A DNA stretch of 64,000 bases from Candidatus Omnitrophota bacterium (GTDB taxonomy: Bacteria > Omnitrophota > Gorgyraeia > Aquiviventales > Aquiviventaceae): NCBI GenBank assembly GCA_016193175.1, contig JACPSR010000052.1, positions 11,226 through 75,225 of the forward strand, in the 5' to 3' direction. Shown piece by piece: positions 1 to 40,503 of the stretch. The position numbers and the translations under genes are program-made. How positions within the stretch are numbered: position 1 is the first letter of the stretch; each line of letters opens with the position of its first letter. Under the pieces are notes generated by a model. The model was not told the origin of the DNA. It ran no database searches and saw only the letters and a program-made list of their open reading frames with translations.

Positions 1-250
1 TGCACCACGTCCTGGACAAGCGTTGGGAAGTTCTGGGGGTGCACACCCGGTATGGCCTCATCCACCTGGCGCTCAACCTCGACCGTCACCGCGACATCGC
101 TCCCTGGAATGTTCGGCCGTGCGACCTCCAGATCTAACAAGGTGAGTCTCGGGGCCCCACTCTTCTCAGCCTGCTCCCTGGCCCAGTCGAGTTGCACCTG
201 CAGCGCGTTGAGGTCCACCAACGCCAGCGGTGTTGCGGCAGGCTCGCGTG
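1..250 (-). repeat. Internal coding repeat (pairs with 3990..4240, ~92% identical; spacing ~3990 bp), encoding PLALxDLxALQVQLDWAREQAEKSGAPRxTLLDLEVARPNIPGSDV...VDEAIPGVHPQNF.TLVQDVV.
   Basis: + strand 1-250 against 3990-4240, aligned by eye. The shadow ORFs 52..579 and 4039..4452 start with near-identical peptides. Confidence 0.9.
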
Positions 251-3200: not shown

Positions 3201-6200
3201 GGCGCGGTCATACGCTGCCAGTCGCGACACGGCGGTGATTGCCTCATGAGCCGCACGATCAACCGCACCCGCACTCTCAGGAATGACGATTCCCTGCTGG
3301 GCGGCTACCTCGAGCAGTTGCTGATGGGCTTCGCGCTCGTTGAGCTGATCTCGATAGAGGCGGGCAAGTACGTTCAGCGCCGGCAGGTTCAGTTGACGCG
3401 GTGGGCGGGGATCGATCAGCCACGGATGTCCAACCACCCTCTTGATGTGTAGTTGCGTATCCGTCGGCAGCTCCTCGAACGGCCCTCCTAACGTTGCGAA
3501 CGCGCCTCGAAAGTCGGCAGGCAAATCAGCGTTCCGGAGGATCGCGCGAACGATGTCGTCAGGCGTGGCGTCGGCATCGATCCTAATCGAGATGGACACA
3601 ATGTTCCCCTGAACATCTCTTTTGTCCAGAGGGGGTGGGAACCAGACACCCGAGCCCAATTGCGTTGAACGATACAGCCGCACTGTCAGTGGTGCGCCCT
3701 CTCCTCCTCGACGCCAGACCTCAAGAGGCCCAACCGGTCGCTCTCTCGTGAGGTTGAGCGCTGTGGTGAACACGCGCTCGATATCAGCCGATGTCAAGCC
3801 CTGCGGGGCCGGCACTTCCCTCGGCGCGCCGCCGGCCACCGGGACAAGATGCGGGGCTTTGGCTCTCGCGAGTGTGAGGAAGGCGTCTCGAACATCTCCC
3901 GGGAGGCCTGGTTTCGCCAGGACGGTACGGACGATCGCTGTGGCGATCGCTTCGTCGGTTGCGTCGACGTTGGCGGTGGCGCGAACGCGCACCACGTCCT
4001 GAACAAGCGTTAGGAAGTTCTGGGGATGCACACCCGGTATGGCCTCATCCACCTGGCGCTTAACCTCAACCCTCACCGTGACATCGCTCCCTGGAATGTT
4101 CGGCCGCGCGACCTCCAGATCTAACAAGGTGGGTCTCGGGGCCCCACTCTTCTCAGCCTGCTCCCTGGCCCAGTCGAGTTGCACCTGCAGCGCGTCGAGG
4201 TCCGCCAACGCCAGTGGACGCTGCGGAACAGATGGTGTCGACCTGCCCGCCACTGGAATGGGCCGATTCAGGAGCAACTGCTGCACGGCAAGTGAGGTGA
4301 GCCACTCTTCACCTCGGGCAGGCACGGTGTGCCATCCTAATCTGGTGGGATACGCAAGGTTCTCCGCCGTATCATCGACAAACAAGATTTCACTCATCAA
4401 CCTAACGCCACTGGGCTGTTCCTGTCTGAGAATCGTCAGCGCCCGTGCGTAGAATGCTTCGGGGTTGTCTTTCAGGACTCCGACTTCTCCTGAGGTAATG
4501 ATGCGAAGACCACCCAGAAATGGAAAACGGCCTTGGAGGTGCCGGGCACGCTCTTGGTCCATATTGGTGAGGACCGCAAGACGATACCCGCGTTCCATCA
4601 ACGCCTGAACCAGTTTCGCCACGCCAGGGATTTCCTCATAGCTCTCGTAGAGCCAGCGCCGGAGCTGCTCGCGCTGCTGGGCTTCAGGCAGGGCGAAAAA
4701 TGTCCGTGCCTCGGTAGTGGCTGTTTCTTTCCCAGCAGTGATCCGTGTCAGCTCTCCAAGGACGTAACCCCAGTACGCATCAGCATCCAAGGTCCCCAAC
4801 CTGAGTTGCTTGGCCGGCTCACCTGTTTCAAGCCACTCTCTCACCGTCTCAGGCTCGACACTGAATGTCCGGCTGATCTGGTCAGCCGCCTTGCTCAGTC
4901 CGTTGGTGAGCAGCGTGCCTGTCAAATCGAACAGCACAGTCTGTACCGTCAGGAGCTGCCCGGCGGCTAACCGTTGCTGAAAGGCCTCCAGGCGTTCAAT
5001 CGCGTCTCGCACCTCAGGCCCTCCCTCTCTCACACCGTCCAGAGACCGAGCTTCGACCGTTTCACGTAACCTTGATGCCAGCGAAGGAATCCAGCCCACC
5101 ATGTTTCCAAAGACATCGCTCATGGAATGAAACAGCAAGAGCAAGCCCGATGCTTGGGCAGCGCGGAGGGCCTGATTGATCGCCCCGTCAAATGCCTCCC
5201 AGTTGCCTTGGAACTGACGCATAAGCGCTCCGAGCCGATCCCAATCAAGCTCCGCATCAGGCCGTTCGATCTCACGCGCCACTTCACCCAACCGTTCCTG
5301 AACTTGCTGAAGAGAGGGTTGCGTGAAGGGGTGGAATGTTGCCATGATCGCCTCGGCAATTCCCGCCTTGGCAGCGTGAAGGACCGCATCGGGCGTGGCG
5401 TCCGCATCGGCATAGAGGGCCACGATGTTCCCCGGGGCGTCCGCATGTCCCGGAAGGACTCGCACCCGCACCTCGGAACCCGAACGCTGTGAGCGATGCG
5501 CCCACACCGTCAGCGGCGGACCCTCTGTGCTCCGCCACACCTGCACCGTCGGACCGCTCTTGTCTTCCTGTCGTGTGAACTTCAGCTCTGTGGTTAACAC
5601 CTGATCAACGCTGCCCCAATCCTGTGGTGGTACCTCGGGAACCCCTGTCTCCGTCGGCGCGCCGGCGGCCGGCAGGCCGCCGCGGGCGGAGTCGGCCATG
5701 GAAGTGAGCAAGGGGACTTGCCGGACGTAGGCCTCGGCCATGTCTCGCTTGATGCCCAGACCAACCAAATGGTCGACAGCCGTCGCTCGATCGAGATCGC
5801 CGAGATAGACGAGCGCTAAGACTTCACGAACCGCTCGGTCGCTGTGGATCCTCGTGATCGTCCGACGGTCGTTCGCGGCCAGCGCATTGACCGGAGACGC
5901 CTGTGATACGTACGGTTCTGCTTCCCGCGCAGTGATCCCGAGGCCCTTGAGCTGTCCAATCGCGCCTGCTGGTGTCAGCTCGAGAAGGTAGCGTCGCGCC
6001 AGCACCTCGCGCACCGCGGGGTCCTTGTGGATGTTGCCGATGAACGCCCGGCGAGCGTTCGTCAAGCGCTCATACGCTGGCGCTACGATGGTAGGACTCG
6101 GCCCACGAGTGGCGGCTGAAGGAAGCACCTCGTCTGCAGTAGCACGCGGAAGGGTTTGGAGATTCGCATATCTTGGCTGGTTGATCGAAGATTCCGTCGC

Positions 6201-9200
6201 GTCGACAAGCGCGATATCGCCGCGTGCCGAAATCAAGAAAAAGCCATGCCCGCCTTCAGTGATTTCTCTCCGGCCTTCGAAGGGACCGAGAATGTTCCCT
6301 TCTGACGTCACGATGCTGACTCGGCCCTGCTCATTGACAATGAGGAGCTCTGCGCTGGCATCAGCTGAGGTGTCTGCGAGCACGATTGAATCAATGTAAC
6401 GGCGCTCCCCTTCTCCCAATAAGCGCGACAGCAGCTTCTTGCCTTCAGCAACACTCAAACGCGCTGCGCCCCTCTGATACGCTGGAACTCTCAAGTGCGG
6501 TTCCACCAGCGCGCCGCCGGCAGCGGGGAGGAGATGCAGAGCGTTCTTCTCTCTTACTAAGTTTGTGAAAGCGCCTCGAAAGTCGGCAGGCAAATCAGCG
6601 TTCCGGAGGATCGCGCGAACGATGTCGTCAGGCGTGGCGTCGGCATCGATCCTAATCGAGATGGACACAATATTCCCCATCACATCTTTTGCGTCCAGAG
6701 GGCGTGGGAACCAGACACCCGAGCCTAATCGCGTTGAACGATGCAGCCGCACTGTCAGTGGTGCGCCCTCTCCTCCTCGACGCCAGACCTCAAGAGGCCC
6801 AACCGGTCGCTCTCTCGTGAGGTTGAGTGCTGTGGTGAACACGCGCTCGATATCAGCCGATGTCAAGCCCTGCGGGGCCGGCACTTCCCTCGGCGCGGCG
6901 CCGGCCGGCGCAGGAGGAATCCATTGCACCGCCGCTGAGCCGACCGATAAATCGGGTACTTCAACCTGAGCATGCGACTTCGCAGCGACCAGACTATAAA
7001 AGCCTTTCGTCGTCTGCCCCGCCATCGCCCCGCGATTGCCCTCGCCCATGACGAGGATCACGTCGGCCGCTTCCCACGCCGCAAGGAACTCCGGCGCAGG
7101 CCGATACGGGTCAAGCGCTCGTGTCTGCGAGCCGGTTGAAATGACACGCAGGCGCGATCCGCCTCCACCCAAGAAGCCGCGCACCGGGTCTGCGTCCAAC
7201 CGCGCGCGCTCATCCGTCACCGTGCTGTCCACATCAGCCTCGACGGCTTTGGCCGCAATGGTGACTGTATGGCCCTGCTCCGTCAACCGCCGCTCCATCG
7301 CCGTGCGACCCACGCCCTCCACGATGTCGTTATCGACGAGAATCAAGACGTTCTTGGGACCTTCGCTCAGTTCCTGACTGAGCTGAGTGCGGTCATCGAT
7401 TGCCAGCGCCCTTGCCTCCTGCTGCTGCAAGAACGCCAGCATCTTGCGAGCGTACTCCCCCAACGCTGTCTCGCCGCCTGCCGCAGACCTCAGCAGATCG
7501 CTAGAGCCCGCGCTGTTCGCCAACGCGGCAATCCCCAGCACCCAGCGATCGCGCTGATCGGGAGCCAGTTCGTCATAGCGTTGCGCCAGCCACGGCATCA
7601 TCACGGCCACAGCCGTTTGCCGGGCTGAGGATTTGAACTGGGCGAGCGGCTCCCCCATGATCTCGCGGAGCGCGGCGTACCACAGCCCTTCAACTTCGCG
7701 TACCGTCCGTTGCTGGAGACGCCCCAGACGAGCCACGAGGGCACCTCTTGCCTGTTCGGCCGCTGACCGTGATTCTGGTTTGACATGTCCGATGGTTTCG
7801 ACGTAGAGATCGAGGTGGCGGAGCAATTGGTCGCGAATGGCCGGCTCGCTCACGGGTCCAGGCCCAAAGACGTAGGTGGCGGGATTCGCGATAATCCGTC
7901 CATCCGCCGGCCCGCGCGCCTCGAGTTGTACCACCAGCCGCTCCACGACAGCTTCAGGGGTAGCGGCCGGCTGAGACCGATCATCTCTCGGGGTGTAGCC
8001 GGCTTCGGGCTCGCCAAGCCCATCGTGACCTTTGCCCTCCACACCCTGCCGCTCCTGGAAGTACGGGGACTCGCCCGTCGGGGCAACGCCGTAGAGGTTC
8101 CTGAGGGCACGGAATTCAGGATCCGCATCTTGCCGGCGGATGAAGTCGGCGGCCTCGTCAAGATTGGAGAGCTCCTTGAAGTCGTGGAGCTCTTCTCCTT
8201 CGACCATGAAGAAACCGGTGTTCAGCTCGGGATACTGCGTGACATCCCCCGTCACGTACTGGGGGAGGAGGTAGCGGGTCAGCTCCTTCCCCTCTGCGTC
8301 CTTCACCACCCTCAGCTCAAGGTTGACATCGGCGCCTCGCTGCTGGAGGACCTCCCCGACCTCTTTGATCTTGGACAGACCGGAGAACTTGTTGTACGGG
8401 ATTCCTCCTTTGGCGGCGAGCTCCCTCTCCACCATGTCCTTGGTGGTAGGATCTGAGGTTGAGATGGTCTCGCCTAAGAATTTCGGCGCCAGCCGGGGAT
8501 CGGGTTTGGTGGTGATGAGCTTCTCCGGGTTCTCCGAATCCGGTCGTCCCTTATTCTCAACGAGCTCCACCAGGTAGCGGTGGCCCTTATTCAGCAGGCG
8601 CAGGCCAAGCGCCAACCAATCCACATCCACGGTGGCGCTGGTGAGCTTCGTCAGATCATTGATGCGGTACTGCTGGATGACCTCTCCGCCGCGCGCGAGG
8701 AGGGTCTCGGCGAGCAGGCCAGGGACGAGCATACGCTGTTTGTTGAGGAGCCGGTAGCCGCTATCCTCCTGCACAAAGACATGCATGGCGGGGTAGAGAT
8801 GCCCAGGCATCACAGGGTCGACGTCGATCGCCTGGACGATGACTCCCTCCTCCAACCGATAGGGGTGAAAGACCGGTACCGGCACGATGTAGAACCGCTC
8901 CGGGGAGAAACCATAGAATTGATTCGCGATGAGATCCTGGACGATCTCCCGCTCCATCCGGGCGCTCACATGGAAGATGATCTGTTGGTTCGCGACCGCT
9001 TGTTCCGGGGAGATCCCAAGCTCCAGATGCGCGCGGGCCAGCCGTTCAATCTCCAGCCGAAGCTGGAGCAACTGCCTGGGACCCCAGGGCAGCGTGTAGG
9101 GGCTACCGGCGAGATGCCCGACGTCCAGGAAGTATATGGCCCCCACCTCGCGATCAGTCACGTCTTTCCCATGCTTCCTGAGGTCCTCGCGCATCCGCCA

Positions 9201-12200: not shown

Positions 12201-15200
12201 CGCTTGACGGATTGAGATGCGAGGCTCCTTCGCCTTCGCCACGGCCCACAGGTCGCGCACACTCTCGCCAATCCGTTTCCTCACATCTTTCCGGATATCC
12301 TCATGCAGCGCTTCGCGTTTCGCCTTGCGCTGCTCATTCTCGGCAGGCGACAGTTCAGGATCCGGCAAACTTGCAAGGATCTCGCGGACGCGCTTGCGCT
12401 CATGGTCGGAGACGATGGCCCCACCGGCGCTCGCCACCGAGTCGTGAAAGACGATCACGCCACGCTCGAAGAGCGTCTTGTCGGCCGCTTCTTCGATAGG
12501 ACCGTTGGCCTCCTCGACAATGAGGGTGGCCTGGACAGCCCCGACGTTCTTGGTGGTGATCGTGTTCTCCAGCGCCGCAAGAATCAAGATATCGGTCTTG
12601 CGTGAGAGGACCGCCTCGTTCCCTGCCTGCGTTCCCTCAACGACGACACTCCCGGGAATGCGCGATGCCGCCGTGATCACAGAACGCCGTTCGTCTTTGG
12701 CTTGCTTGATGAGTTCGACCTCTTCTCTCGTGAAGCCACCGACCTTGATCAGGGCGCCTCCTGTGTCGTTGATGGCCTCGACCCTTCGCTCGCGCTCCAC
12801 ATTTTCGATCAGTGCAAAGCGGGCGGCATTCCCCGCCCCGATGATCACGACGGTTGGCACATCGGGGTTGCCCCCCCGGTCCCTGATGGCTTGGCGAATG
12901 TCTTCAATCTTCAGCGCCGCATCAATGGCGTAGGTGCCACCCAGGCCTGTGGCTTCGGTGCGGACGGCAATACCACCAAGCTCGATGGGTTTGGTTGAGA
13001 AGGTGCCCAGGGCTTTGACGATATCCGGCAGATCACGCTGTTCACGAATCGCCTTCTGCCCTTCGCGGATGACGGCCCGGACGTAGGGCAGCGGGCCGAG
13101 GGAGATCTCTTCTTCATTGCGCTTGATGATGACAGGCTCACTGAACTCTGCCTGGGTGGGTTGGACGGTCGGACGGCCCGCAGCGGTCTCACGCTGGGTG
13201 AAGGTGTGCAGGTAGCCTTCGGTGAGCCAGATCATTTCTTGCTCGCCGGTGTTGACGTCTGGGGCGGGGCCGTCGATGCCGATGCCGACGATGGGGGCAG
13301 GATCCCTCTCACGCGTGATGGTGCTGGGTGCGCCCCAGGCTGAACCGATCGCGAGAAAGAGCTCTCGTTGAGCCTCGCGTGGGAATTCTGGTCGAGGATC
13401 AGACGCGCTCGTTTTCTTCAAGACCCATGTCTTGACGGCAACGACATTCCCGCCGGCATCCTTCTGGTAGCCCAGCAGCGCAACGGTTCCCTTGCCGCCA
13501 CCGGTATCTAGACCCACAGAAGCCAGCTTCAGCGTCATCCCCTTCGCGAGGCCCTGCGCTTCTTCTCTCATCCACTGCCGAAGATCGCGCACGAGCTTGG
13601 TCAGCTCCTCCTTTGGTGGAGAATGTTCTAGACGTGAGAGAGCGGCCAAGCGCGACTTCAGCGTTTCGCCCCATGCATCGGAGCCCGCATCGAGCTCACG
13701 GATGCCGCCCTGGAACGGGCCGATGCGGTTGTTATCCTGGGCGCGGACGTGTGGGAAGAACCAGGTTTGGCCATCCACTGGGAGACTCACTTCACCCTCA
13801 TGGATGGCTTGCGTGCCAACGAGCTGCTGGATCAGCTCTGGCGGGAGTTCCTCCGCTTGGGCTGCCGCTTGGGCTGCCGCGCGCATCCGCTCCTGCATCT
13901 TCGTCAGCAGCGGGTTCTGCGATGGCTCGGCAGCCCCTCGCGCGAGCGCCAGGTCCTTGATGAGGGTGATCGCCGAGGCGGCTCGCTGCCACTGGTCATC
14001 CGCCAAGACGATGAGGATCGCGTCCTGGCCATCAATCACCATCGTCCGAGAGGTATCAAATACCGCCTGTCTGCGACCCCGGACTGCAGCCGTCACGAAC
14101 GCTTCACCGGTTTCAAGGTGCGGCAGGCCGCGCACGGCATCCTGCACGACCTGATTCACCTCAGCGCTATCTTTCATCGGCTTGCCGGTCGAGATCAAAA
14201 GGGCGTAGACATCTCCTGAAGTGACAGGAACGCTGACGGCTTCCACCTCGGAATGAGGTGAATCAGGAGTTCCTGCAGGGCTTGGGATGTCTTGCTCAGC
14301 TAATACTTGTTCGAAGGTAGCTGAGAGGGCTACCCCCCTGCGCTTCAAGTCCTCCTGTGTCAACGGCACGATGTTCTGTACCGCAGACTCTTTTCGGTAG
14401 GTGTCGAGCGCCGGCTGATCACGGTTAATCGCCAGATTCAGAGCAAGCGTGACGTGTTTCGTCCCATACTTCTGGTGGATGGCCTGTAGAACCGGCAAGA
14501 GGCTGGCCTCGAGCGGCGACGCAGGGGTGTAGAGGCTTCGTTCGTCATCCACGGGGCGGGTCGGGAGCGTCCGAACAGCTTCCTTCGGCTGCTGCTGACG
14601 CAGATCGATGGTCGTGACGCCTTCCTTCTGATAGAACGGGACGTCTTTGTTGTAGCCAAGGTCAATGACAAAGTCGACCTCAGGCAGTGTGGAGAGATCT
14701 GTTTCATTGCGCACGCTGAAGTTCAGTTGGTCTCCAAGACTCACGACGTAGTCGCCCGCCGTGGTCTTCCCGTGATTGATCGGGACGTCCAAGTGCCCAT
14801 AGTCGGAGTGGGTCTTCAAGCCCTCCGCATACGCGCCTGCCGCAGATGCCGGCATCCCATTGACCCACACCAGCTCGATATCCTGATCCCGCATGCGGGT
14901 CAGGTCATAGAAGATGAGCTGATCGAGTCGGCCGGCATTCTCGGCAATGCCGTTGATCCCCACCCGGACCTTGCGGGTCAGGCGATGCGCGTGGGCTTGA
15001 CGCTTTGCCTTAAGGGCTTGGGCCAACTGACGCGCCGTGCGGACGATCTCCTCGGCTGGGACAGGCGGGGCGGCCGCTGCGGCCGCTCGTCCCCTGCGAC
15101 GCCTGCCGCCTCCACCAACCGCCTCGGGGGGCGCTGTAGGCTGCTGGAGCTTCCCGGCAGCTTCCAAGATATGCAGACTTTCAGCCAGGTCATTGACCCG

Positions 15201-18200
15201 CGCCACATACCCCCATTCGTTGTCATACCAGGGAGAGACGACGACGTACTTCCCGACCGGCCGATCATCGGTGTCGGTGAGCTCGCGCCCGCGCTCATCG
15301 AAGACGCGGATGCGGTCTTCATCAATGATGCTGCTGATTTCACTCTGTTTGACCAAGCCCATGGTCACGTTCTTGGTGACTTGAAGCATCCGGGGATCCT
15401 TCGCGGCCTTGTCTTTGAAGGCCTGGACGACCGCCTTTCTCGTCGCCGGGATTCGCAATGTGGCCCGATACACCAGCATAGACACCGTCGCGGTGGGCAC
15501 GCGGATCGCCAGCCCATTGTGCGGACCGGGGGCGCTCCCGTCGATCGTCTCGATCATCTGCATGGTCGAGATCGACGAAGCCGCTCCGGTCGTGGTCAAG
15601 CCGCTCTCGCGCGTCGCTGGAAAGGCCCGGCTCGGATCCCCCGAGGCGAAGCTCTGCACCGGCGACTGCGTGTTCGTCACGGAGTGGATGGTGATCATCT
15701 CCCCTCGCTCCACCCCAAAGGCGTGATTCAGCGCGGCGACAACCGTTGCCAGCCCGTTGGTGGTGCAGGACGCCACGGAGTGAATGCGCGGATCGATGAG
15801 CTCCATGAGGTCATCCACCGTGGCCCCCAGCACCACCATGGGGGTCTGCGCATCGCCGGGTGGGTTGGTCATCTGCACCTTGGCCGCGCCGTTGTTGATG
15901 TGCTTCTTGATCGCCCCGGCCATGGTATAGGCTTCGCGATCCCCCGAGGAGTCAACGATGTACAGCCGGTTGTGGCCGCCGGGACCCTTGACGTGGGGGG
16001 CGTCCTCCCATTTCTTCCAGGGGAGGACCTGACGCTCGTTATCCACCAGCATGATCCACCCGCCGATCGAGACCCAGTCTTGTCGATAGCGTGTGCCGTT
16101 GATCTTGAGAAAGTGGCCGTACTTGATCTCAAGGCCTTCAAACAAGCGGCCATACGTTGAGTCGCTCTCCGCCATCTTTTGGGCAAGGCGCGCCAACGGT
16201 TCTGAGCCGACCCCGTTCAGATGGATCACGTTCATCCCTCCGCGCCGCAAGGCTTGCGCCAGGTCAAGGAATCCAACGCGTCCCAGGCCGTTAATGGCCG
16301 TCGGGATGGGGTTGGCCAGCACCCGATTCACAAACGCTTCCTGCTCCGCTCGCGTCGTGAACGAGAGACGCCCCGACTTGACCAACCGCTCAACCAACTG
16401 CTCGGTGGGTTTCCGGCGTTCTTCATTCGGAACGAACTGTTCCACTGTCCCGCCAGCTTGCACGGGGATCGCATCCACGAGGTTAGCCTCGGTCAAGGGA
16501 GCGGTCAACGCCGTCAGAGGCGGCGCCTGAAGCTGCGGGCCGGCGACGGTCCCCGACAGCTCCTCGATGCGGCGTTTGAGCTCCGGGGAGGTGGGCGCGG
16601 CTTCTTGCGCAATCGTCAGGTAATGCTGCGCCGTGAACGGGTCATCCTTGCCCTCGGTCCTGGCCAGGTGGAGGGCCAGCTCTGCCGCCTGGTTGCGCGT
16701 GTCAGGATGCAGCTCGTGCGCGTTGTAGGTGTTGAGGAGGAAGCGCAGGAGTTGCAACGCATTCCGATCGTCGTTGTCCGATGGCACCGTGATGGCATCC
16801 TGTTCGAGCTCACTCAGCTCAACCGCTTGCAGACCGTCTTGCTGGATGCGGCGGGCACGGAAGTACCCTCGCGCCGCCTCCACGCGCCGACGGTGTGTCG
16901 GATGGCGGTTGTAGGCCAGCGCATCCGCGAAGGCTTCTTCGGCTTGCTCAAAGAGCCCCAGGTCTCCATACGCCACACCGAGCCGATACGCGGCGTAGGC
17001 CCGCTCGCCGTCCGACCGAGCCGCGCGCACCTGGGCGCGCCAGACGCTGATGTCGGTCTCGATAGTGAACCGGTAGGTTCGGTGGAGGCCGGAGGAGGAC
17101 ACCTGCAGTTGCTCGAGGGTCAGCTCGCCGGTCTTGGGGTTGACCTCGGGCGCGGCCATCGCCCGGCCATCGACGTCCACCCACGGCACCGGACTGACCG
17201 CGGTGAACCACGTCGCAGCAGGGCCTCGCACGAGGTGCTTGGCCTCGTCCGACGAGTCAGAGTCGTACTCGGTCTCCCACGAGACCGCCTTCGTCCGACG
17301 CGCCAGCATGGCGGCAAGCAGCGCGATCTTCCGGCGGTCCTCTTGAAACAGCGCATCGGACAACCCGCGACGGGTCAGGGACGCCCGATGCTCCTGAAGA
17401 AGCGCGGTGAGCGCCGCGGCGATCTCCTGCTCTTTCTGAGCCACTGCGTGCTGTGGGTGTTGCATGATCGCCACGACCCGAGGATGGGTCCACACCGTCT
17501 CATCCTGCGCCAGCTCGATCATCTCATCGAGCGTGTAGCGCTGATAGTCGGAGGGTTCGAAGGAACCTTTCTGGGCCTCGCTCCAGACCCTGGCGGCGGC
17601 CAGGCGCGCCTTATACGACACCTCCAGCCCTGCGGCCATCGCCGCCTTGATGGCCATCTCGGGCGAGGCGCCGATCCCCCACAGGAGATGCAGCCGGTTT
17701 CCGTTCGATGTCACATCCTTCGCCGCCACGGAGAGCACCGGAAGGACGTCGCCGTCTCGGAACGTGTAGAGACCGCCGATCTCAAGAAGGCGTCGGCCGA
17801 GGAACCTGATCGGCGGTAGTTTCTTCAATTTCAGCGGCTGGCCGGTCTCGATGGCCGCCGCGACGGCCTCCTGCAGCCCGGTCCATGCCTGCTCGTCGAT
17901 CGCCCGGCCCCACAGTTGCTCGAGGCCGGCTCTCAGTTGAACGCGATCCTCTTGCACCAAGCCGCCCAGCGCCTTCCACACCGCGTCAAACTGCTTCTCC
18001 CTTCCGAACTTGGCTTCCCATGCGGCCTGCAAGAACGGGCGGTTGCGGTCTCGGTAGAGCGCCGCGCTGCGGAGGTTCTTTGCGCTCACGCCCACCGCCT
18101 TGGCGACGGATTCCAAGTTCTTCGCAGGCGGCGCGTTCAAGTCGACCCTGCGCGTCGCTCCCTTCGGCGCGAAGACATACTGGCCGTAGATATCGACGGC

Positions 18201-24200: not shown

Positions 24201-27200
24201 CGCGCCTTGAGCGATCCCCCCTCCGGCGAAGAGCTCGGCATCCGCCCGGCGCGCATCTTCCGCCGTCAGGAAATCGACGCGCGGGGTCACGCCGTGGCGC
24301 GTCACCAAGTGGTTTGCGAGGATCGTCTCGAGCCGAGCCGCTACGTCGCGAGCTACACGTTGATCCGTCAGATCCTCAACCGGCTGACCAAGGGCCGCGG
24401 AGGACTGCGCCGCCAACTCCTCATCGCTCACGATCCAGGGGCGCAGCGCGTCCCAGATCGAGGCCCTGATCGCCGGATCATCATGCGTCACTAAGGTGCC
24501 CAGGAGACTTGGCAGTTCATGCATCAAGGCTTGGGGATCTCGCAACTCCACGGGAGGCTGCTGAGCCGAGGGTGTAGGGCTCATCATCTTGACCGGCCTG
24601 ATCACGCTCTCACGCAGGGTGCGCGCTGACTGCAACACCAGCACAGCCAGATCCGCAAAGGCCGCCAATCGGATGGCGTTGAGCTGGATCAGTTGCCGAT
24701 CGTCTAAGCGCGCATCTCCTTCGGTCTTCAGGTCCATCGCGTCGGCCAACAGAGCCGGAACGCGCATGACCGCTGCAGCCACATGGCCCACGAAGTCACC
24801 GACCGATTCAGCCGCTCCCTTCACGGAGCTGGGGGCCTGTGCGGCCACCTGCTCTTTAACCTTGGCAGCGGTTTCCCCGATACGGCGTGCGAGATGGCCG
24901 AGCTCCTCCTTAAACGGGACCATCTGTGCAAGAAAGTCTTTGGTATCCTTAACGGCTGCGGGCAGATTGAGGTCTGGGAGTCCAAAGGTCCTCAGCTCCA
25001 GCCGTATCCACTCCACATAGCTCTGCAGGCGTTGGAGCGTGTCGGAGAAACGCTCCAACTGCACCGCCAACTCGTCGAGATTGAACCGGCTGGTGGCGAT
25101 GTCCGAGAGCGGTCCGCTGATCTCCTCAGCCTGCCTGCGCAACTGTTCAAGCAGCTCCTTCGCTCGCCCACTTTCTCCGACCCCATAATCAACCGCCGAC
25201 CCTGCCTGCTCGGCTTTGTCTGCAGCCGTCTGAAGCAAGGCGGCCAGTTGACGGATCCACTGGGGCGGTTGGGCGCCGAACAACGGGATGGTGAATACTT
25301 TTCCGCTTACTTTGAGGTTGAGCTTGCCATCGACGATCTTGAGCAGGTCCTTCGCCACGTCGCGCAGTTTGGCGGGATGATAGGTCTTGGCCATCCCTTC
25401 GACCCACTCCAGCACGCGCTCCCCCCGTTCTGGCAGTTCGAGTGCCTTTGCCGCTTCTGGCTGCCATCGGCTCTTGAGCGTGTTGAGCGCATCCACCACC
25501 ACACTGGCCGCCTCGAGCACGACAATGACATTCGTGAGGTCTAGCTGGAGGGCGTCGATGCGCCGATCAAACTCATTCGGGCGGTCTCGCGTGATCAGGA
25601 CCTTCTTGGCGATCCCGCTGACGGTGTTGCGAATCGGCTCCGGCACCAGGGGCAGGTACTGGGCGATCAGCTCCTGGACGTGAACCTTGGCGTCCTCGTA
25701 CATCCGCTGATAGTTGTCCACCCTTTTCTGCACGGTCTCCGCCGGCAACATTCGTTCGGCAAGCCATCTCCCTGCCCTCGTCCCCATCGAGAGCGCTGCC
25801 ACGGCCACGGCAACGTGATGGAGGAATGACGACGCGCCTTCGAGTCCTGCTTCAAGCCGACTCCGATCCGGTTCAATCGCCTCGTCGAATGCTTGTTGAT
25901 AGCGCGACTTCCAGCCGGTCCGCTCAGGGTCCTTCAGGAACAGCAGGTGTTCCGGGTCCGGGTCCCGGATCAGTTCATACATCGGCTTGCCGCGCGCAAG
26001 GCCAAACAGCGGCACCGACGCCGCCGGCCTGGCCCATTCGATGCGGGTGAGGCGTCCCCACTGCGAATTGAGCTTGAGCTTCACCCCTCGCTCTCCGACT
26101 TTGAGCGCGAACACCGGACCGCCTCCAAGCTCCTTGACGGTTTCGTAGATCGACTCGAAGTCGTTCGCGACCCAATTGGTCATCACGAGCGGCTCATCGC
26201 TCAGTTTCACCGTGATGTGCGACCAGCCGGGTGGAATGACCAGATGATCTCCGGCCTGCACGCGCACGACTGTCACGTCCGTCACCAGAGCCCGAAGTCG
26301 AGGCTGCCACAGGATCGCCAGCCCTTCCCCGGCTTGGTACTCATACAGTTCTGGATATTTTGATCTTCGCCCAAACACGAGCGGATGCTCGTGCCCGAAC
26401 GTCTTGATGTACTCGACAAGACCGCTGGGATCGGTGATCGGCTCGCCAATAAGCATTGTGACGTCGTGCCGTAAGCCCCACGCCTCCGCCCTCATGCGGT
26501 CTTTCTGACTGGCGTAGACGCCTCGATACATCCGGTAGGCGACCCGCTTGCCTTCCTCACCTGCGGTCACGGCGTCTTTCTGAGTCGTGGCGAGAACTGG
26601 TTTCAGGTTTTGCACCGTCCGGTCTTGCACGTTGGTAACGACCGTGCCAGGACCGAAGTCCAGGCCGGTTCCTTCCCGATTCACGCTCATCTCGAGGCCG
26701 GCCGCTTCATCGAGCTCCTGTCCTGGCCGACGGACGAACAGCCGGTCCAGCAGCTCCTGCACCTGGCTGGCGTCCTCATACCCCACAATCGCCGGGAGCT
26801 CCACGTGCCTCGGTTGCGCGCCAGGCTTCTTTCCTTCAAGCAGGAGCCGCTGCTTGGTCACCTGCGCCTCCAGCAAGGCTACGATCGCATCCGTGCCGTC
26901 CAGACCCCGCGCCAGCAAGTTGAGCGACGCGCCGCCTCCGCTGGAGACATGTTTGAGCGCAACACTGCTGGTAAATTGATCGATCAGCCCGAATTGCTCG
27001 ATGGCCGCCGCAGAATCGCCACCACCAATGACCGATTGCTCGGCTAACAACATCGCCTGCGCAAGAGCCCTGGTCCCCTCCTGGAATCGCGGATCCTCAA
27101 ATTGCCCCATCGGACCGTTCCAAACCGCCAGCGTGGCATGCGTGAGATGTTCTGCGAAGAGCTTCCGCGTCTCCGGCCCGATGTCACGAAGATCATCGGT

Positions 27201-30200
27201 GGGGAGAATCTGATCGGCGCCCCGCACCGCGGTTTGCGTCCTCTCCGAATCGGTGAAGACGACGAAATCGACCGGTTGCACCAAGCGAATCTTCCCTTCG
27301 CGATGCAACCGCAGCACGTCCGTGGCGCTCTGCAGGGCGTCCTGCTCCTTCTCGCTCAGCGACCGGCCGACCTCTTTGCCTTCCGCCACTCTCAGCGTGT
27401 TGGCCAGGCCGCCGCCGACCAGAATCGTCAGGGGGCGTCCTTCCGCGATGGCCCGCTGCGCGATCGCGTTCATCACGCCGATCTTGTCCCCGATCTTCGC
27501 CCCGCCCATCACGACGACATCCGCCTCGGTGCGCGCCGCGCTCAGGGCGAGGATCTCCTTCTCCATCAAGAACCCTAACAAGGTGGTCTTGACCATCTGC
27601 TGGGCCATCTCGATGGCCACCTTCCCCACCGAGGCATGCGCGCCCCGATGGGCCGCCCCGAAGGCGTCGTTCACGTAGATGTCGGCGAGGTCCGCGAATC
27701 CCTTCGCATAGTTCTGGCTGCCGCCTGATTCCTCTGCGCTGCGAAAGCGCGTGTTCTCAAGCATCAGAACTTGCCCAGACTGCATCTTGCGGACGGCCAG
27801 CCGCGTCGGCTCGCCGACAACCTGCGCATCATCAGACAGCATGACGCGCTGACCGAGGAGATCTTCCAGCCGCTGGGCCTGAGCCTTCATGCTCCAGGAG
27901 CTGCCGTCCTGCTCCTGATGGCTGGCGATGATCACCTTGGCGCCGGCCTGGACGAGCCGCCAGATCACCGGCACGGAGGCCACGATCCTGGCGTCGTCGC
28001 TGATCGTCTTCCCGGCGTCGCTGAAGGGCACGTTATAGTCGACCCGCACCAGGACGCGCTTGCCCGCGACGGCGGCGTCGTCGTAGCGCTCCAGATACCC
28101 GTACAGCGACAGCGCGTCGAGCTCAGGATACCGCGCGATGAAGGCCTGATGCTCTTCCTCCGTCAATCCGACGGATATCCGCGAGGGCTGCGTGGTGGAA
28201 ACCGTCGAGGGGTTGAAGGAGAGGACCGACCCCATGACCAGGGCGGCCCCCATCCCTTCGGGCACGGCCGGCGGCCCCACCTGCAACGCCTGGATGGCAT
28301 CAGCGCCAGGGAGAGGGATCGCGACGTTCCTGGTCGCATCGGCGGCGCTGTCAAAGATGTTGAGGAAATCAGGAAGGTGTGGGCTGACGAGGGGGAACAA
28401 CCACAGGTACAGCAGATAGAGGCCGAAGGCGCCAGCTATGATCGCGATGCTGATGATGGCGATCGTTTTCGCTTCGCGAAGAACCTGGACCCGCCATGGA
28501 ACCGCAGGTTGTGCAGCAGGCTGCGCAGCTTGTGGTGCCGCTGGAGGAGCGGTCACCGTTGGGGCTTGCGCGGAAGAAGGCTGACCCGCCCACCATCGAT
28601 CCAGCGCCATATCGGTCCGGCGAACCGCGCTGTTCCACCGTCTGACGATAGGCCGTGACATCCGTAGGAAGAGCCCGGCTTGGAGGATCACCGCCGAGAT
28701 GAGAAGAATCGTCCCCGCAGCGGAGTGTGTGTACGTGGGGACGAGTTGGCTCCCTGTGAGATAGGTGGTGTAGGCGAGGAGGAGCGAGAGGCCAAGGTAG
28801 AGGAGTTTGAGCGTGGCGTCGACGAACCAGGCGGGCTTTCGCGCGTGTTGAACGAGCACCTCAGAAAGCTCCTGCTTGACGTGATGTTGAGCGACGATCC
28901 TGCCCACAAGGCTCGGGGTGGCATTCTGGAAGGCGCGCGCGGGGCTCACCTGGAAATGGAGCGGATCAGCCAGGGCTTCACGGGCCAGACCAAACTCCGC
29001 CAGCCCGCGGAAGAGCTCCGCATCCCGTGGATCGAGCACCAGGTGCACGTCGCCCCGGGAGAGATACTCCTTCTCAATCCACTCATAGAGCGCCGCCATT
29101 CTGATGAGGCGCACGACATCTCCTGTTCGCTCCTCAGGGGCCTTCAACAGGTAATCGCTCAACCCCCCCAAGATCGTGCCGTCATCCAACCGTCCGTCGC
29201 GGTAGAGGCTGACCATTCGACGCAGGTCGGTGTAGAGGTCTGAATCCGTCAGGGCGGCCTGGGCCATGAACCACGCCGGCAGCGCGATAATCACTCGTCC
29301 GCCGCTGAGCTGAAAGGCTGGCGCCCCAGGCTCTGGATTGATCTGAAGGGTGATGGGGATTTCCTGACCGACTCGTTGCGCCTGCCCGAGGAATCCCTGG
29401 AAGTTGCCGAGAAACTGTCGCCAGATTGGAGCGTCTTCGCCTTCTTCCGGCAACGGCTGGGACGCGGCGGCCTCCTGATAGAGGCGCCGCATGCGATCCA
29501 GCAACTCATCGCTGAGGCGCGATTGGGCCTTCAGGGCCTCCGACACGAGCAGGCCGAGAAACGGCTCGAGCCGATCATAGGCTCGTCGGTAGTCGCTCCA
29601 CAGTCGCCGGCCATCCACGCCCTTGAGATCCAGGACTGCCTGTTGGGCTGTTGGCAAGGTATCGACGCGGGTCACCGCAGGCCCCAAGTCCCGCTCCCGG
29701 AACAACGTGTCTGAGATGAGCAGCCCCGGTGCAGGCTGTTGCGCAGGTTTTCTCCCTTCCGCTTGCGCTCTTGCCCGCTCGTCCGCCGCCCGCCTCTCCC
29801 CTTCGGCCTTCAGGGGTCTCGCTAGGACACCGATCTGCTCAGGTGCTTCTCGCTGAAAACTGCCTGCCGTATAGAGATGAATCTTGTGTTCGTTCCTGGC
29901 AGGCTGGATCTCACGGTGGTTGAGCGCTTGTGGCCCTTGCGCAGGCGCCCTCACCGCCTTCAGCTCCTGCTCCAGTTGCGCTTTGAGCATGCGGGTGATC
30001 CGATACAGCCGCTGGGGCTGGGTCGCCAGCTCATTCAGCTCGCGAAACGGATCGCCACCTTGGGAAAGCAGCAGCTTATCCGTCGCCAGGATCTGGCGGA
30101 TGTGGTCGGCCCCAAACACCCCTCGCCGAAGCTCATCCAGCAGCCGCTGCCGGTACGTCGCTCCCACGAGCTCAGCGTCGCTGGCATGGATGAGAATCCG

Positions 30201-33200: not shown

Positions 33201-36200
33201 CAACGAAACCCCCGACGGCAGCACGTCCAGCACCTGGAGCGTCACCTCCGTCCGCCGGTCGACCCATCGATGGTTCAACAGGACGCGGAGCTCATCGTCT
33301 GACAGCCGGTCCAGCGCCATCGATTCGCCAAGCTCGTTGACGGCCTGCACCGCTTCGGGCTGCTGCAAGCGCTCCTGGAGGTACGTGAACGGAATCATCA
33401 TCGGGGTGGTAGCGGCGTCAAACCCCAGCGCCTGGTACCGCGCCTCGCTCATTTGATCGAGGTAGAGGGGAATCTTCAGCCGCGCTCGAATCGTCATCCC
33501 GCCGACCGCCACCTCCTCCCCGCGGATGAGCCGGGCGAGCTGCGCCGCTGAGAGCGACCGGACCAGCGCCGAGCGAGCCCCCCCTTCCACCGGCCGTGTC
33601 GCATCGTCCTGAAGCAGCTCGATCGGGTAGTTGAGCCGGTACCGCACCCAGTGGAGCCCCAGCCCCTCCCGACGCACCAGCGCGATCACGCCGCCGAGGA
33701 GAAGGGTGCGAAGCGTATGGATCCATCGGCGATCGAGGTTCACGGCGTCTCGCGTCCCCGGCTCGGCAAACGGGTTGAGCGTCCTCCCTGCTCCGTCCGT
33801 CAGCCGCAACCGCCCCTGGAAGTCATGCGAAACCCAGCGCTGGAAGCTGCGCAGCTCCCCGGCCAGCGAGGGGGTGAGCGGCGTGTGGCCGACGAGCAGG
33901 ATTGTCGAGTTCTCCGCCGGCACTTCGAGCACGCGGAAGTGTCGAGCGAATGGCTCAGGGATCTGGATCTCATGCGGATGCGGCGCGAGGTCCCCGTGCT
34001 TGCGCCAGAGGATCGTGAGCACTCTCACGAAGCGCCGGCGCCCCTCCAGCGAGCTGAAGAGGTCCTCCACGTCCTCTTTCGAGAGGTATTTCAGAAACAC
34101 AAAGCGGGTGGCGGCTTCCTGATATTGGAGGGAGTCCCTGATCGCCGTGGCGATTCCCCGGCCGGCCGCTTGCAGATCCTCAGGGGTTGGATCGCCGGCG
34201 CGGCTGAGGCGTTCCTGATAGAGCGCGTTGAACTCGATCTGCGAGGCAAGCCAAAACTCCTGACGAGCCTCCTCTGAATCGCGTAGGGGAACCAAGGAGC
34301 CGCTGAGGATCCCGCCCATGACCTCGTGCATGGCCCGTCGGAGCAGGCCTGGATGCTCACGCACCTCCCGGGAGCGCAGCAGGTTCTGAAGCGACTCGGG
34401 CAGGAGCCGCCAGTACCCTTCAATTTCCGTCGTGAAGGCCGCCGTAGGAGACCCCGGATGGCGGCGAACGAACTCTGCACCGCTTCTGGCCGCCTTCGAG
34501 AGACCCTGCAGCACGTTGAGCAGTCCCTCCCCGGCAGCAGTCCCTGAGAGCGAGGAAACGAGGGCGGTCAGCCCGGGATGCTCTCTGAGCGCACCATCCA
34601 GGCCAGCCAACTGCCCGGCGATGGCGCCCGTCACGCTCTCGAGGGCCCCAAATTTCTCTGCGGTTGAGAAATCCCAGTCGGGGGGGGTCGTGCGTCGCCG
34701 CTGGAATTCATCCAAATCCGGCCGATAGTCGGCGTTGCGGAGAAACTCGAGGGCGAGACGATGATTGCCCTGCGAGGTCAAGAAGTGAAAGAGGGAGAAC
34801 TCATCCACGCCCTCAGCGCTGAACACCCGCAACGCGAGATTCTCACGAGGGAGCAGGGGTTGTGGGATCTCACCTGCCGCCGCTCGCAGGTTGAGTGGGA
34901 CCTCAATGCCATACAGATATTCGACCAGCGAGGGGAGGAGCCGCAGCTCATACGGATCGCGGCCGGTCCGCAGCCTGACCTGCTGCGCCTTGAGGAGCGG
35001 AGGGCCCATCACCCCAAGGGCGATGCTCTTGCGATTCCCTTCGCTGGGATCTTCGTACGCAAGGTCGTACTGGAGCGCCGTCCAATCGGCCACCGCGACC
35101 CGCACAGCGTCCCGCACAAAGGGAAGGGCTGCCAGCGCTTGCACAAGCGAAAGGAGGCGAAGCCGCTTCAGGATCGCGTAGCCGAGATCCACCCACAGCA
35201 TCCGGGTCCTGACGTCCCGCTGCTGCCGGTACCATGCCGAGTGGAAATCGTTCTGATAATCGATCAGGCCGCGGAGGGTCTCGTATCGTTCCTCGCCCAT
35301 CCCCAGATTGGGGATCTCCCCTCCGCGACTCAAACCTTGGAGCCCTCCCGTCGGTTCGCCGATGAGAGGCCGGGTGACCGCGTCACGGAACAGCCCTTCA
35401 GAAGAACGCAGGCGCCCACGCTTCGCTTCCACATCCCTGAGGCCCTTGACGCTTCCCTCCAGCGGTCCGAATGACCCATACACGTTGAATCGCCCGTCTG
35501 GACTGGCAAAGTCCGGCACATGCTCAAACGGTTTCACCTGCTCGGCGAACTGGACGTTTCCAGCAGCCGCAACACGCACCTCCTGCCACACACTGAGGAT
35601 GGCCGTGAGGAACCCGTCCAGATCCCGCTGCAAGTCTCCATGCAGCTCATCGCTAATCACCCGGCCCGTGCGCAGCATATTCAGGAGCCGCACGGCGTCG
35701 TCCTGATTCTCGTAGATGAGCCGGCCAAGCTCCGCTTCCCAGTTGCCTCTCAACTGCGCCTCGGCGCCCAACAGAATCTGCCGACGGATCGAACCGAGCC
35801 TGAGCGTCCGCAAGATCGGTGGCGCCAGGACGACGCCTGCAAAGACCGCCAGGCCAACCGTCGCGCCGATCCACATAGCACTCACACCTGCGCCGATTGC
35901 GCCGATCCAGAGCGAGACGATCCCAAAGACCGTCACTCCACTCACCACGCCGGCAGCAAGACCCGCAAGCACGCGAGGAAGCAGCCGCCTGGGAGCCGGG
36001 GCGCTCGGTGTCGGAGCAGGTGGAACGGGTTGACCGACTGCAGGAATGTGGCCTTTCGTCGCTTTGAGCTCGTTCCAGAAACCGGTCTGGACCTCGTACG
36101 CCGCGAAGCGGAATGGCTGCTCAAGGAGGGCCGTGGCGACTCCCGCCACAAGACCCAGGTCGACCTTCTTCACGCGAGGTGACTCAGCGCGCGCATCCTC

Positions 36201-40395: not shown

Positions 40396-40447
40396 GGCTT
40401 GCTGCCTGCTACGGTTACCGCGCCACGACCATCCTAATATTAAACAC

Positions 40448-40476
40448 ATAATAATAGATTTCAAAAACATTGTCAA
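40448..40476 (-). promoter_or_regulatory. Sigma70-like promoter TTGACA-N17-TATTAT, in the only AT-rich island of the window. It would drive the 530-aa gene and the downstream megaprotein gene.
   Basis: Minus strand reads ...aattgcTTGACAatgtttttgaaatctatTATTATgtgtttaatattaggatgg. The -35 sits at 40476..40471 and the -10 at 40453..40448 with a 17-nt spacer. It lies between the stop of the 5401-aa gene (40504) and the ATG at 40395, in an otherwise >60% GC window. Confidence 0.5.
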
Positions 40477-40486
40477 GCAATTTTTT

Positions 40487-40502
40487 ATTAGTGGCTTAGT
40501 GG
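40487..40502 (-). repeat. Tandem direct 8-mer GCCACTAA x2 immediately 3' of the 5401-aa gene stop.
   Basis: + strand ttagtggc ttagtggc at 40487-40502. The TAA stop at 40504-40506 is the start of the first copy on the minus strand. No clear hairpin terminator accompanies it. Confidence 0.6.
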
Positions 40503-40503
40503 C

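Follow-up and report, generated by a model that had tools for sequence, protein, structure and literature searches.

The 64,000-nucleotide (nt) stretch of DNA analysed here (the window), from contig JACPSR010000052.1 of the Candidatus Omnitrophota bacterium assembly GCA_016193175.1, carries on its minus strand a giant open reading frame (ORF), termed G1, in which many enzymes of central carbon metabolism are joined in one chain. G1 is a genuine giant gene from an uncultivated Omnitrophota bacterium. Around 12 different enzyme or repeat families occur in it, each once or twice. As read from the sequence, catalytic or ligand motifs are kept in its phosphoglycerate kinase (PGK), phosphoglucose isomerase (PGI), fructose-1,6-bisphosphatase (FBPase), glyceraldehyde-3-phosphate dehydrogenase (GAPDH) and phosphoglucomutase/phosphomannomutase (PGM/PMM, or PGM) domains, and largely in its glutamate dehydrogenase (GDH) and triose-phosphate isomerase (TIM) domains. 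The preferred reading of this protein, to which close to an even chance is given, is a Sec-targeted, membrane-anchored enzyme array that faces outward.

The G1 reading frame and its enzymes

An ORF scan of the window found the minus strand free of stop codons from 3 to 38909, a run of 12,969 codons with the GC distribution of coding DNA, which bears out the single ORF of more than 12,900 codons proposed in an initial annotation. From the ATG at 38798, G1 encodes at least 12,932 amino acids (aa) and is open at the window start. This ATG is preceded by the TAA of the upstream gene, S1, at a distance of 4 nt. The ATG at 38846, picked as the start by gene callers on independent assemblies, would add 16 aa. 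The GC fraction of G1 at codon positions 1/2/3 is 0.70/0.46/0.74, a uniform coding pattern, and the window as a whole has a GC content of 63%, among the higher values of the fetched Omnitrophota loci (38-68%). The junction of S1 with G1 on one side and the next giant gene, G2, on the other was seen again in four independent Logan assemblies from different runs, and the longest of these (L005) is a 100% match to the first 3,332 codons of G1.

Such a frame could also arise from a chimeric assembly, or from ordinary genes in a row whose stops were lost through assembly or consensus error. The source is a metagenome-assembled genome (MAG), an internal repeat that is 88.6% identical (aa 10678-10747 and 11701-11770) could misguide an assembler, and the independent assemblies confirm only the first 10 kb of G1. 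However, 12,969 sense codons in a row at 63% GC are not explicable by chance, and the codon-position pattern remains uniform along the gene. Thousands of in-frame residues separate the enzyme domains without AT-rich or promoter-like gaps, whereas the real intergenic region at 40396-40503 is clearly AT-rich. In addition, the four independent assemblies concur on the 5' end of G1, and long-read complete genomes show the same architecture class, according to the available text of a preprint (10.64898/2026.06.07.730766). An artefact is therefore regarded as scarcely credible.

The C-terminal part of G1 is repetitive. Besides the repeat just mentioned (nt 6558-6767 and 3489-3698, minus strand), a second pair joins aa 11496-11603 to aa 12818-12932 at 69.6% identity (nt 3990-4313 and 3-347, minus strand). 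The DUF89, HAD and HEAT domains are each trailed by a common repeat module, a possible assembly hazard. Opposite the giant genes, the plus strand holds stop-free stretches of 450-630 codons (for example 47827-49728, 14490-16157 and 16206-17816), most likely shadow ORFs of the kind typical in GC-rich coding DNA.

Domains were assigned by Pfam and NCBIfam profile scans of overlapping 1,000-aa pieces of G1, and by PDB sequence searches:

3..38798, minus strand: G1, giant ORF of at least 12,932 aa; C-terminus past the window start; alternative start ATG 38846
38154..38336, minus strand: J domain (DnaJ), aa 155-215; Pfam 51 bits, NCBIfam DnaJ models; HPD intact (VVHPDRN)
26913..28082, minus strand: PGK, aa 3573-3962; PF00162 341 bits, full profile
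26079..26621, minus strand: cupin-type PGI, aa 4060-4240; PF06560 106 bits
22968..23297, minus strand: partial TIM-like segment, second barrel half only, aa 5168-5277; PF00121 17-20 bits, below the gathering score
19710..20987, minus strand: split TIM module, N-half aa 5938-6060, C-half aa 6150-6363; PF00121 79 bits, PDB 2btm 54 bits
17514..18488, minus strand: class II (GlpX) FBPase, aa 6771-7095; PF03320 86 bits
16905-17000, minus strand: TPR, aa 7267-7298, directly after the FBPase domain
15168..16301, minus strand: type I GAPDH with insertions, aa 7500-7877; TIGR01534 161 bits, profile 3-328/330; PDB 7u4s 107 bits
14019..14543, minus strand: degenerate second GAPDH-like segment, aa 8086-8260; Gp_dh_C E=4.5e-4, NF033735 E=0.008; no Cys
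12393..13781, minus strand: ELFV/glutamate dehydrogenase (GDH) with large insertions, aa 8340-8802; PF00208 103 bits, PF02812 45 bits, PDB 8kao 79 bits
9867..11588, minus strand: PGM/PMM, aa 9071-9644; PGM_PMM I 82, III 40 and IV 23 bits
6951..7649, minus strand: ARMT1/DUF89 damage-control phosphatase-like domain, aa 10384-10616; PF01937 42 bits
4359..4943, minus strand: HAD-family hydrolase, aa 11286-11480; PF00702 46 bits
1029..1934, minus strand: HEAT repeats, aa 12289-12590; HEAT_2 85 bits, HEAT_PBS, HEAT

The profile searches thus recovered PGK, GAPDH, PGM and GDH where the initial annotation had placed them, as well as the J domain, cupin PGI, TIM, HAD and HEAT repeats, and each peptide signature that it quoted was found in its place in the translation. 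The second GAPDH-like copy is present in degenerate form, without the catalytic Cys. The class-II-aldolase-like segment proposed there fared differently: PF01116 is absent at E<=0.1 from every piece of G1, and NCBIfam and PDB searches likewise returned no match. The GlpX FBPase (aa 6771-7095) and the ARMT1/DUF89 domain (aa 10384-10616) had been overlooked; the latter is homologous to the DUF89 of the Omnitrophota proteins P0162 and P0271.

The matches differ in strength. PGK scores 341 bits against a 27-bit gathering cut-off and covers profile positions 2-376/379. For GAPDH, Gp_dh_C reaches 66.5 against a cut-off of 24.4, Gp_dh_N 30.3 against 31.7, and TIGR01534 161 against an equivalog cut-off of 367; all NCBIfam matches of G1 are far below equivalog cut-offs. 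The partial TIM segment at aa 5168-5277 matches Thermotoga maritima TIM 1b9b (E=7.7e-7) and NF010569 (32 bits). Domain II of PGM_PMM was not detected by Pfam, and the first ~3,300 residues of G1 match nothing in the PDB by sequence, as judged from a query with aa 1-3,145. Recognised domains make up ~28% of the visible protein, while 72% is without recognisable domain.

Motif alignments agree with the earlier claim that catalytic residues are kept in PGK, GAPDH, PGM and GDH, with exceptions in PGK and GDH. In PGK, every residue invariant in a five-sequence alignment is kept (RVDYNVP, ENTRF, NDAFGAAHR, GGAKIGDK, GGGDSAAA, SGGGAS) except LGRP after SH, a 4-aa deletion in which Arg65 (human numbering) of the 3-phosphoglycerate site is lost. 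Cupin PGI retains the metal ligands GHEH...E...H, and FBPase the motifs EGRRDEAP, DPLEVT, DGDV and GIGASPE. GAPDH keeps NGLGRVG (GxGxxG), ASCTTN with Cys7678, TIHSVT, RVPT and WYDNEWGY, and PGM GTSGVR as well as all four signature loops (TPSHNP, DTDGDR at aa 9351, GYEESGG, RASGTEP). GDH keeps GGGKGT and PAPDVNT, with long insertions that break its N-domain and GPFQGG in place of GPxKGG (Lys to Gln); membership of the ELFV family is apparent from the profiles, and glutamate specificity is uncertain. In TIM, the N-half keeps Asn and Lys (LTFIANHKAN) and has VDGAD where GHSERR is expected, the C-half keeps His (GHQELR) and Glu (FELS), and loop 6 (PVWAIGTG) is replaced. Motif I of the HAD domain reads FDLTGT, with Thr at Asp+2, and motifs II-IV are present.

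A strong independent argument for catalysis comes from the distribution of cysteine. G1 contains 3 Cys in 12,932 residues, G2 2 in 5,440, the third giant of the window, G3, 1 in 2,430, and the multi-enzyme protein P0246 1 in 5,511. The GAPDH nucleophile Cys7678 is one of the three in G1 and the sole Cys in the enzyme stretch, which is free of transmembrane (TM) segments. In locus L004, a giant ORF that is unrelated or distantly related to G1 encodes 3 Cys among 3,327 aa, and two of these lie within ASCTTNC; a 1,673-aa protein of locus L013 has 4 Cys and keeps LSCTSN. Giant and multi-enzyme proteins of L002, L003, L012 and L016 are depleted of Cys as well. Across the multi-enzyme proteins the Cys content is 0.02-0.27%, compared with 0.3-3.9% in most cytoplasmic neighbours and 0% in exported OEP/MFP neighbours. 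Selection thus appears to have purged Cys nearly everywhere but where catalysis requires it. With catalytic motifs largely kept and the catalytic GAPDH Cys surviving in almost Cys-free proteins, we infer that the enzyme domains of G1 are active. Given the losses of PGK Arg65, TIM loop 6 and the GDH Lys, some of them may be impaired or re-specialised. Conceivably, the partial copies of TIM and the GAPDH-like copy without Cys serve as in-cis partners of enzymes that are normally oligomeric.

The same data can be read in terms of a scaffold or binding protein derived from enzyme folds, in which pseudoenzymes bind sugar phosphates, nucleotides or host surfaces, or act as structural modules. The degenerate GAPDH-like copy and the two partial TIM copies fit this explanation, as do the sub-equivalog NCBIfam scores, the large undomained fraction, and the changes in PGK, TIM, GDH and the Asp+2 position of HAD. 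Nevertheless, catalytic and metal-binding motifs are near-complete in seven domains, the GAPDH catalytic Cys is retained in nearly Cys-free proteins of three independent lineages, and the domains add up to a coherent pathway and not to a random assortment. A protein made of pseudoenzymes is consequently considered very improbable.

Membrane anchoring and the side of the enzyme array

Hydrophobicity scans predict 4-5 TM segments in G1 in addition to an N-terminus that resembles a signal peptide. The corresponding features are as follows:

38643..38798, minus strand: signal-peptide-like segment; basic n-region, h-region IVCATIAVSVSPAMAV, AFA/WG site, then conserved ELRP
35823..35972, minus strand: TM hairpin 1, aa 943-961 and 974-992; Kyte-Doolittle and Hessa-scale scans
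28383..28805, minus strand: TM cluster 2, aa 3332-3350 marginal, aa 3360-3378 and 3445-3463 strong; hydrophobicity scans

The predicted TM segments are confined to aa 943-992 and 3332-3472, both N-terminal to PGK, and the 9,460-residue TM-free stretch that follows carries every enzyme domain, with TPR, HEAT and unknown sequence as spacers. The initial annotation had described the enzymes as separated by TM clusters and by repeat spacers; the TPR and HEAT spacers are there, whereas TM clusters between the enzymes are not. One further hydrophobic segment, at aa 5961-5979, is strand beta-2 of TIM and was discounted as a TM candidate. Of the explanations then proposed, a membrane-tethered enzyme scaffold remains a live one.

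Two features point to the side on which the enzymes lie. The first is the N-terminus, which reads AFA/WGQASELRP and resembles a Sec-type signal peptide. Homologues of S1 adjoin multi-enzyme proteins in other Omnitrophota loci, and all eight such proteins with a complete N-terminus show a basic n-region, a hydrophobic core, an AxA-like site and, after 5-10 residues, the motif [LM]R[PT]. This layout is found in G1 and in proteins starting at L010 11511, L012 11431, L013 11563 and 16743, L016 11559 and 15126, and L015 1648. Examples of the motif are ELRP, HLRP, ALRP and NLRP. Three of the eight have no other hydrophobic segment beyond the signal peptide. The layout looks like a sorting or processing signal. 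The second feature is charge: the loop between the strong TM pair of cluster 2 has a net charge of +7 and the C-terminal flank one of -3, so that by the positive-inside rule the C-terminal side of the last TM segment would be outside. DeepTMHMM/TMHMM surveys also place such metabolic domains outside, as reported in the available text of two preprints (10.1101/2023.11.21.568195; 10.64898/2026.06.07.730766).

The outward-facing array is thus favoured by signal peptides conserved across the class, the charges around the last TM segment, Cys depletion, the published surveys, and sugar-uptake genes nearby, with sugar-binding proteins of ABC importers adjoining two related loci. In the proposed mechanism, G1 would be co-transcribed and translationally coupled with S1, and its product would be inserted by Sec, displaying the enzymes on the outside of the cytoplasmic membrane, where the array would process phosphorylated sugars and trioses set free from a host or prey cell. 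PGM, PGI, FBPase, TIM, GAPDH and PGK could jointly interconvert glucose-1-phosphate and 3-phosphoglycerate, save for the aldolase step, which was not found. GDH beside GAPDH would recycle NAD(H), and the terminal phosphatases, DUF89 and HAD, would dephosphorylate the products and thereby free sugars for uptake. The presence of FBPase in place of PFK suggests a gluconeogenic direction or phosphate removal.

Several observations weigh against this reading. The intact HPD of the J domain implies contact with cytoplasmic DnaK, which conflicts with a cleaved signal peptide that would put residues 43-942 outside, and the positive charges flanking TM hairpin 1 would also be expected if the N-terminal region lay in the cytoplasm. 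The marginal segment at aa 3332-3350 leaves the TM count, and hence the side of the array, uncertain. Cys depletion also spans the possibly cytoplasmic N-terminal 3,300 residues and may reflect something other than location. Profile scans found no PFK, mutase, enolase or pyruvate kinase in the visible part of G1, and, given the altered PGK, TIM and GDH sites, some domains may be impaired or re-specialised. Moreover, the array would need cytoplasmic metabolites (sugar phosphates, ADP/ATP, NAD(H), glutamate) from a source outside the cell, where the thiol of GAPDH would be vulnerable.

Some of these points fit a metabolon at the cytoplasmic face instead. In this alternative the N-terminal segment stays uncleaved, the TM segments form hairpins, and the array lies inside, where it channels glycolytic or gluconeogenic intermediates while the in-cis J domain recruits DnaK for folding. 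The intact HPD and the positive flanks of hairpin 1 favour it, the strong TM pair of cluster 2 could be a hairpin as well, and textbook biochemistry places what PGK, GAPDH and GDH use, substrates and cofactors alike, in the cytoplasm. In a survey of Omnitrophota long proteins, 46% fall into a TM-only class that is read as having cytoplasmic domains, and sugar-metabolism modules are called compatible with it in the available text (10.64898/2026.06.07.730766). However, canonical signal peptides are conserved in all S1-linked glycolytic fusions, including some without any other TM segment. The charges around the last TM segment predict the opposite side, Cys depletion resembles that of exported neighbours, and a sugar-uptake binding protein lies beside related loci. 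A cytoplasmic array is accordingly judged somewhat unlikely, if a serious contender.

The outward-facing array can be taken further. A predatory or episymbiotic bacterium might export a dedicated, covalently joined stretch of glycolysis/gluconeogenesis, comprising ATP-linked PGK, thiol-dependent GAPDH and an NAD(H)-recycling dehydrogenase, that works at the contact zone or in the emptied host cell, with the signal peptide plus LRP as its sorting motif and S1 handling it. This extended version is held to be unlikely in its entirety.

The S1 partner gene and its recurring locus

The gene between G2 and G1 offers a further handle on function. S1 and the gap upstream of it are described by two features:

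38803..40395, minus strand: S1, 530 aa, between G2 and G1; N-terminal signal/anchor sequence, Tiki/ChaN/erythromycin-esterase-like core
40396..40503, minus strand: AT-rich intergenic region; sigma-70-like promoter TTGACA-N17-TATTAT upstream of S1, read from the sequence

Among the gaps examined in the window, 40396-40503 alone is clearly AT-rich. The putative promoter TTGACA-N17-TATTAT suggests that S1 and G1 form one operon. Read-through from G2 into S1, which share a frame with one TAA between them, was considered and rejected: the AT-rich gap and the consensus promoter argue for separate genes.

S1 has 199 homologues at E<=1e-5, mostly of ~500-550 aa, and among the matches listed every organism name is Omnitrophica or Omnitrophota. 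The family shares the invariant motifs IQDAHxNYEAQ, VEGGxGD and GGFH, which bear His, Glu and His. PF04187 (ChaN/Tiki) is matched by 6 of 38 family members. An AlphaFold2 (AF2) model with a pLDDT of 88 shows an alpha/beta core interrupted by a long insertion of helices. A Foldseek search with this model returned weak (E>=0.17) but coherent matches to EreC (erythromycin esterase), BcR135, HopBA1 and ChaN; a profile-against-PDB search gave nothing meaningful.

The arrangement of a giant gene followed by S1 recurs. In four other loci a giant ORF (34,114, 26,119, 11,572 and 6,471 aa) lies upstream of an S1 homologue, and in three of these glycolytic fusion proteins lie downstream of the homologue. 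In the fourth, that of the 34,114-aa giant, the protein encoded downstream is truncated at 3,175 aa. The proteins encoded after the S1 homologue are:

L012: PGM protein, 2,747 aa
L013/L014: FBA+PFK+GAPDH, 1,673 aa; then PPDK
L016: aldolase-like+PFK; then PPDK+PGK; then PilZ and a sugar-binding protein

P0246 (5,511 aa; L002 2758-19293) goes further, with an S1-like region fused at its N-terminus to GH77+FBPase+TIM+ROK. In another S1 locus transposases intervene and no glycolytic domain was seen. Of the six loci examined, five have S1 adjoining or fused to glycolytic fusion proteins. Repeated neighbours of S1 loci are PilZ proteins and the binding protein of a sugar ABC transporter (SBP_bac_1) (L012 19728-21425; L016 9466-9798 and 20897-21515). 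The base composition of lineages with the system varies widely: S1-carrying loci have 46-68% GC (L012 68%), and L001 has 42%.

S1 also enters into the possibility that G1 is a polyprotein precursor. According to this explanation, which can be combined with either location, the chain is cut after translation, by S1 or another protease, into separate enzymes that perhaps form a working glycolytic set. S1 belongs weakly to a Tiki/TraB-type superfamily that includes proteases, and several of the enzymes are normally oligomeric, so that assembly would be easier after release. P0246 contains 12 copies of the motif RSE[LVA]R, where 0.027 would be expected, and they flank its enzyme domains; the L004 giant (3-9986, 10001-13300) has two copies and P0137 one. 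Post-translational cleavage of giant proteins was proposed by West-Roberts et al. in the text available (10.1101/2023.11.21.568195). On the other side, RSE[LVA]R is absent from G1, G2 and G3, where no other enriched punctuation motif was found, profile scans detected no peptidase domain in the window, and the degenerate extra TIM and GAPDH copies could act as in-cis partners instead. Processing into separate enzymes is therefore deemed improbable for G1. RSE[LVA]R may itself be a lineage-specific punctuation motif, marking cleavage sites or linkers.

Upstream of S1 the window holds two further giant genes:

40504..56826, minus strand: G2, 5,440 aa; multiple TM segments, Sigma70_r4 at nt 55642-55773, TPR arrays
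56706..63998, minus strand: G3, at least 2,430 aa, continuing past the window end; TM segments, Sigma70_r4 at nt 61266-61418, and the C-terminal portion of an SF1 helicase (AAA_12, nt 63699-63995)

Both contain a Sigma-70 region 4 helix-turn-helix amid TM segments, which is odd in membrane-anchored giants. No housekeeping genes, tRNA or Rfam matches were found in the window.

Relatives, known classes and significance

The Omnitrophota origin of G1 follows from two facts: S1 is 100% identical to P0276 (locus tag HYY59_02590) of a Candidatus Omnitrophica bacterium MAG, and the more distant named relatives of G1 (including P0136, P0150 and P0162) are all Omnitrophota. Close relatives are few. An exhaustive HMMER search with aa 6001-7150 returned only four, all short fragments. 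The closest, P0121, is a Ca. Omnitrophota MAG protein with 50% identity (E=4e-135), encoded on DNA of 42% GC (L001); another comes from a TARA mesopelagic sample. The FBPase region of G1 is collinear with the fragments P0121 and P0122 (Omnitrophota/TARA) at 50-55% identity. A word-index search with aa 5951-7150 had given nothing; since the exhaustive search found P0121, that null result is a failure of sensitivity. A search for related loci, made with the G1/P0121/P0122 alignment against genome and metagenome collections, gave no confirmed relatives, and a seven-sequence alignment contained no usable conserved stretch. In the same collections, a 60-nt sequence taken from the PGK region had no exact counterpart.

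A search with the PGK domain returned only ordinary PGKs of ~395 aa, to which G1 PGK is 41-46% identical. P0001 (482 aa) was dismissed as an ordinary PGK with an assembly duplication. L004 also encodes an embedded PGK: its ORF (at least 5,321 aa) combines PGK with GAPDH, and an FBPase protein comes next. The embedded PGKs of G1 (26913-28082) and L004 (6378-7916) are 29% identical to each other, and 42% and 32% identical, respectively, to ordinary PGKs. A common origin is unsupported, as each is closer to ordinary PGKs than to the other; recruitment on several occasions, or very rapid divergence, is suggested in place of a single ancestral fusion.

G1 very probably belongs to the giant "multi-enzyme metabolic" proteins of Omnitrophota. 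In the available text of West-Roberts et al. 2023, domains of TIM, glucose-phosphate isomerase, FBPase, PGM/PMM, FBP aldolase and often PPDK are described in Omnitrophota giants and predicted to be extracellular, with doubts voiced (10.1101/2023.11.21.568195). A study of 229 Omnitrophota genomes sorts proteins of >=10,000 aa into three architectural classes, one being "multi-enzyme metabolic clusters"; the modules listed in its accessible text are PGM, ROK kinase, hexokinase, HAD and HEAT, and their position inside or outside is debated (10.64898/2026.06.07.730766). G1 shares with this class, as described there, its Omnitrophota origin, a length above 10,000 aa, many enzyme Pfams tiled with HEAT/TPR, anchoring by TM segments and/or a signal peptide, the PGM, TIM, PGI, FBPase and HAD modules, and adjacent giant genes. 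The preprint text available makes no mention of PGK, GAPDH, GDH, DUF89 or J domains; PGK and GAPDH were found here in other public giants.

The earlier remark that no natural fusion of these enzymes was known is contradicted by the two preprints (10.1101/2023.11.21.568195, 10.64898/2026.06.07.730766), as far as their available text goes, and by public Omnitrophota fusions (GAPDH+PGK, FBA+PFK+GAPDH, PPDK+PGK, FBPase+FBA+TIM). Among these, P0136 (1,865 aa) has the order FBPase-TPR-FBA-TIM, and both P0136 and P0150 carry the PF01116 aldolase. Smaller fusions of this kind (P0136, L013, L016, L012, P0246) resemble G1 in their signal-peptide N-terminus, Cys depletion, central-carbon enzymes and TPR spacers. 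The [LM]R[PT] motif is found in those adjoining S1; S1 is fused in P0246, and P0136 does not lie next to S1. In contrast to them, G1 is 5-10 times longer and holds in one chain the enzymes that they split over several proteins, with negligible identity outside the enzyme cores.

G1 is not an Archaeovorin in the strict sense. As defined in the available text, an Archaeovorin gene exceeds 90,000 bp (>30,000 aa) (10.1101/2023.11.21.568195). Of G1, 38.8 kb is visible, and its length is at most ~62 kb. Unlike Archaeovorins as described there, G1, G2, G3 and S1 show no glycosyltransferase, methyltransferase, glycoside hydrolase, peptidase or NUDIX domain (Pfam E<=0.01-0.1). The window, outside which parts of G1 and G3 lie, also has no SecA_DEAD/SecA match; G3 has the SF1-helicase domain AAA_12 instead.

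Other comparisons are more remote. Like the Thermotoga-type PGK-TIM fusion (NF010569; example P0019), G1 carries PGK and TIM on one chain and matches NF010569 with both parts. Its score is 323 against a cut-off of 883 bits, however, and its PGK and TIM are ~2,000 residues apart with other enzymes between, in a protein that is membrane-anchored and 20 times longer. Consecutive pathway steps are physically joined in AROM, in type I fatty-acid and polyketide synthases, and in glycolytic metabolons or glycosomes, as they are in G1. Unlike these systems, G1 is without carrier domains or a covalent intermediate, its domain order is not the reaction order, its spacers are far longer, and it has a membrane anchor and a signal peptide. 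Surface GAPDH, PGK and enolase of Gram-positive pathogens are glycolytic enzymes outside the cytoplasm, and they are ordinary cytoplasmic proteins relocated without signal peptides, whereas the G1 copies are dedicated, signal-peptide-bearing and fused.

Giant multi-enzyme proteins of Omnitrophota are therefore already known, and G1 is a striking further example rather than a new type. Three features were not seen in the available text of both preprints (10.1101/2023.11.21.568195, 10.64898/2026.06.07.730766): the locus in which a giant gene is followed by S1 and a signal-peptide-bearing glycolytic fusion, the N-terminal LRP motif, and the extreme Cys depletion. The giants of Omnitrophota rank with the largest predicted proteins of any organism. 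Among them G1 is unusually informative: at least seven central-carbon enzymes with intact active-site motifs lie in one TM-free stretch, within a recurring type of locus that includes a small, well-foldable partner and a common N-terminal motif. The S1 partner, the LRP motif and the Cys pattern thus provide handles on function. If the array lies inside the cell, it would be the most extreme natural pathway fusion; if it lies outside, the view of how ultra-small predators feed would change.

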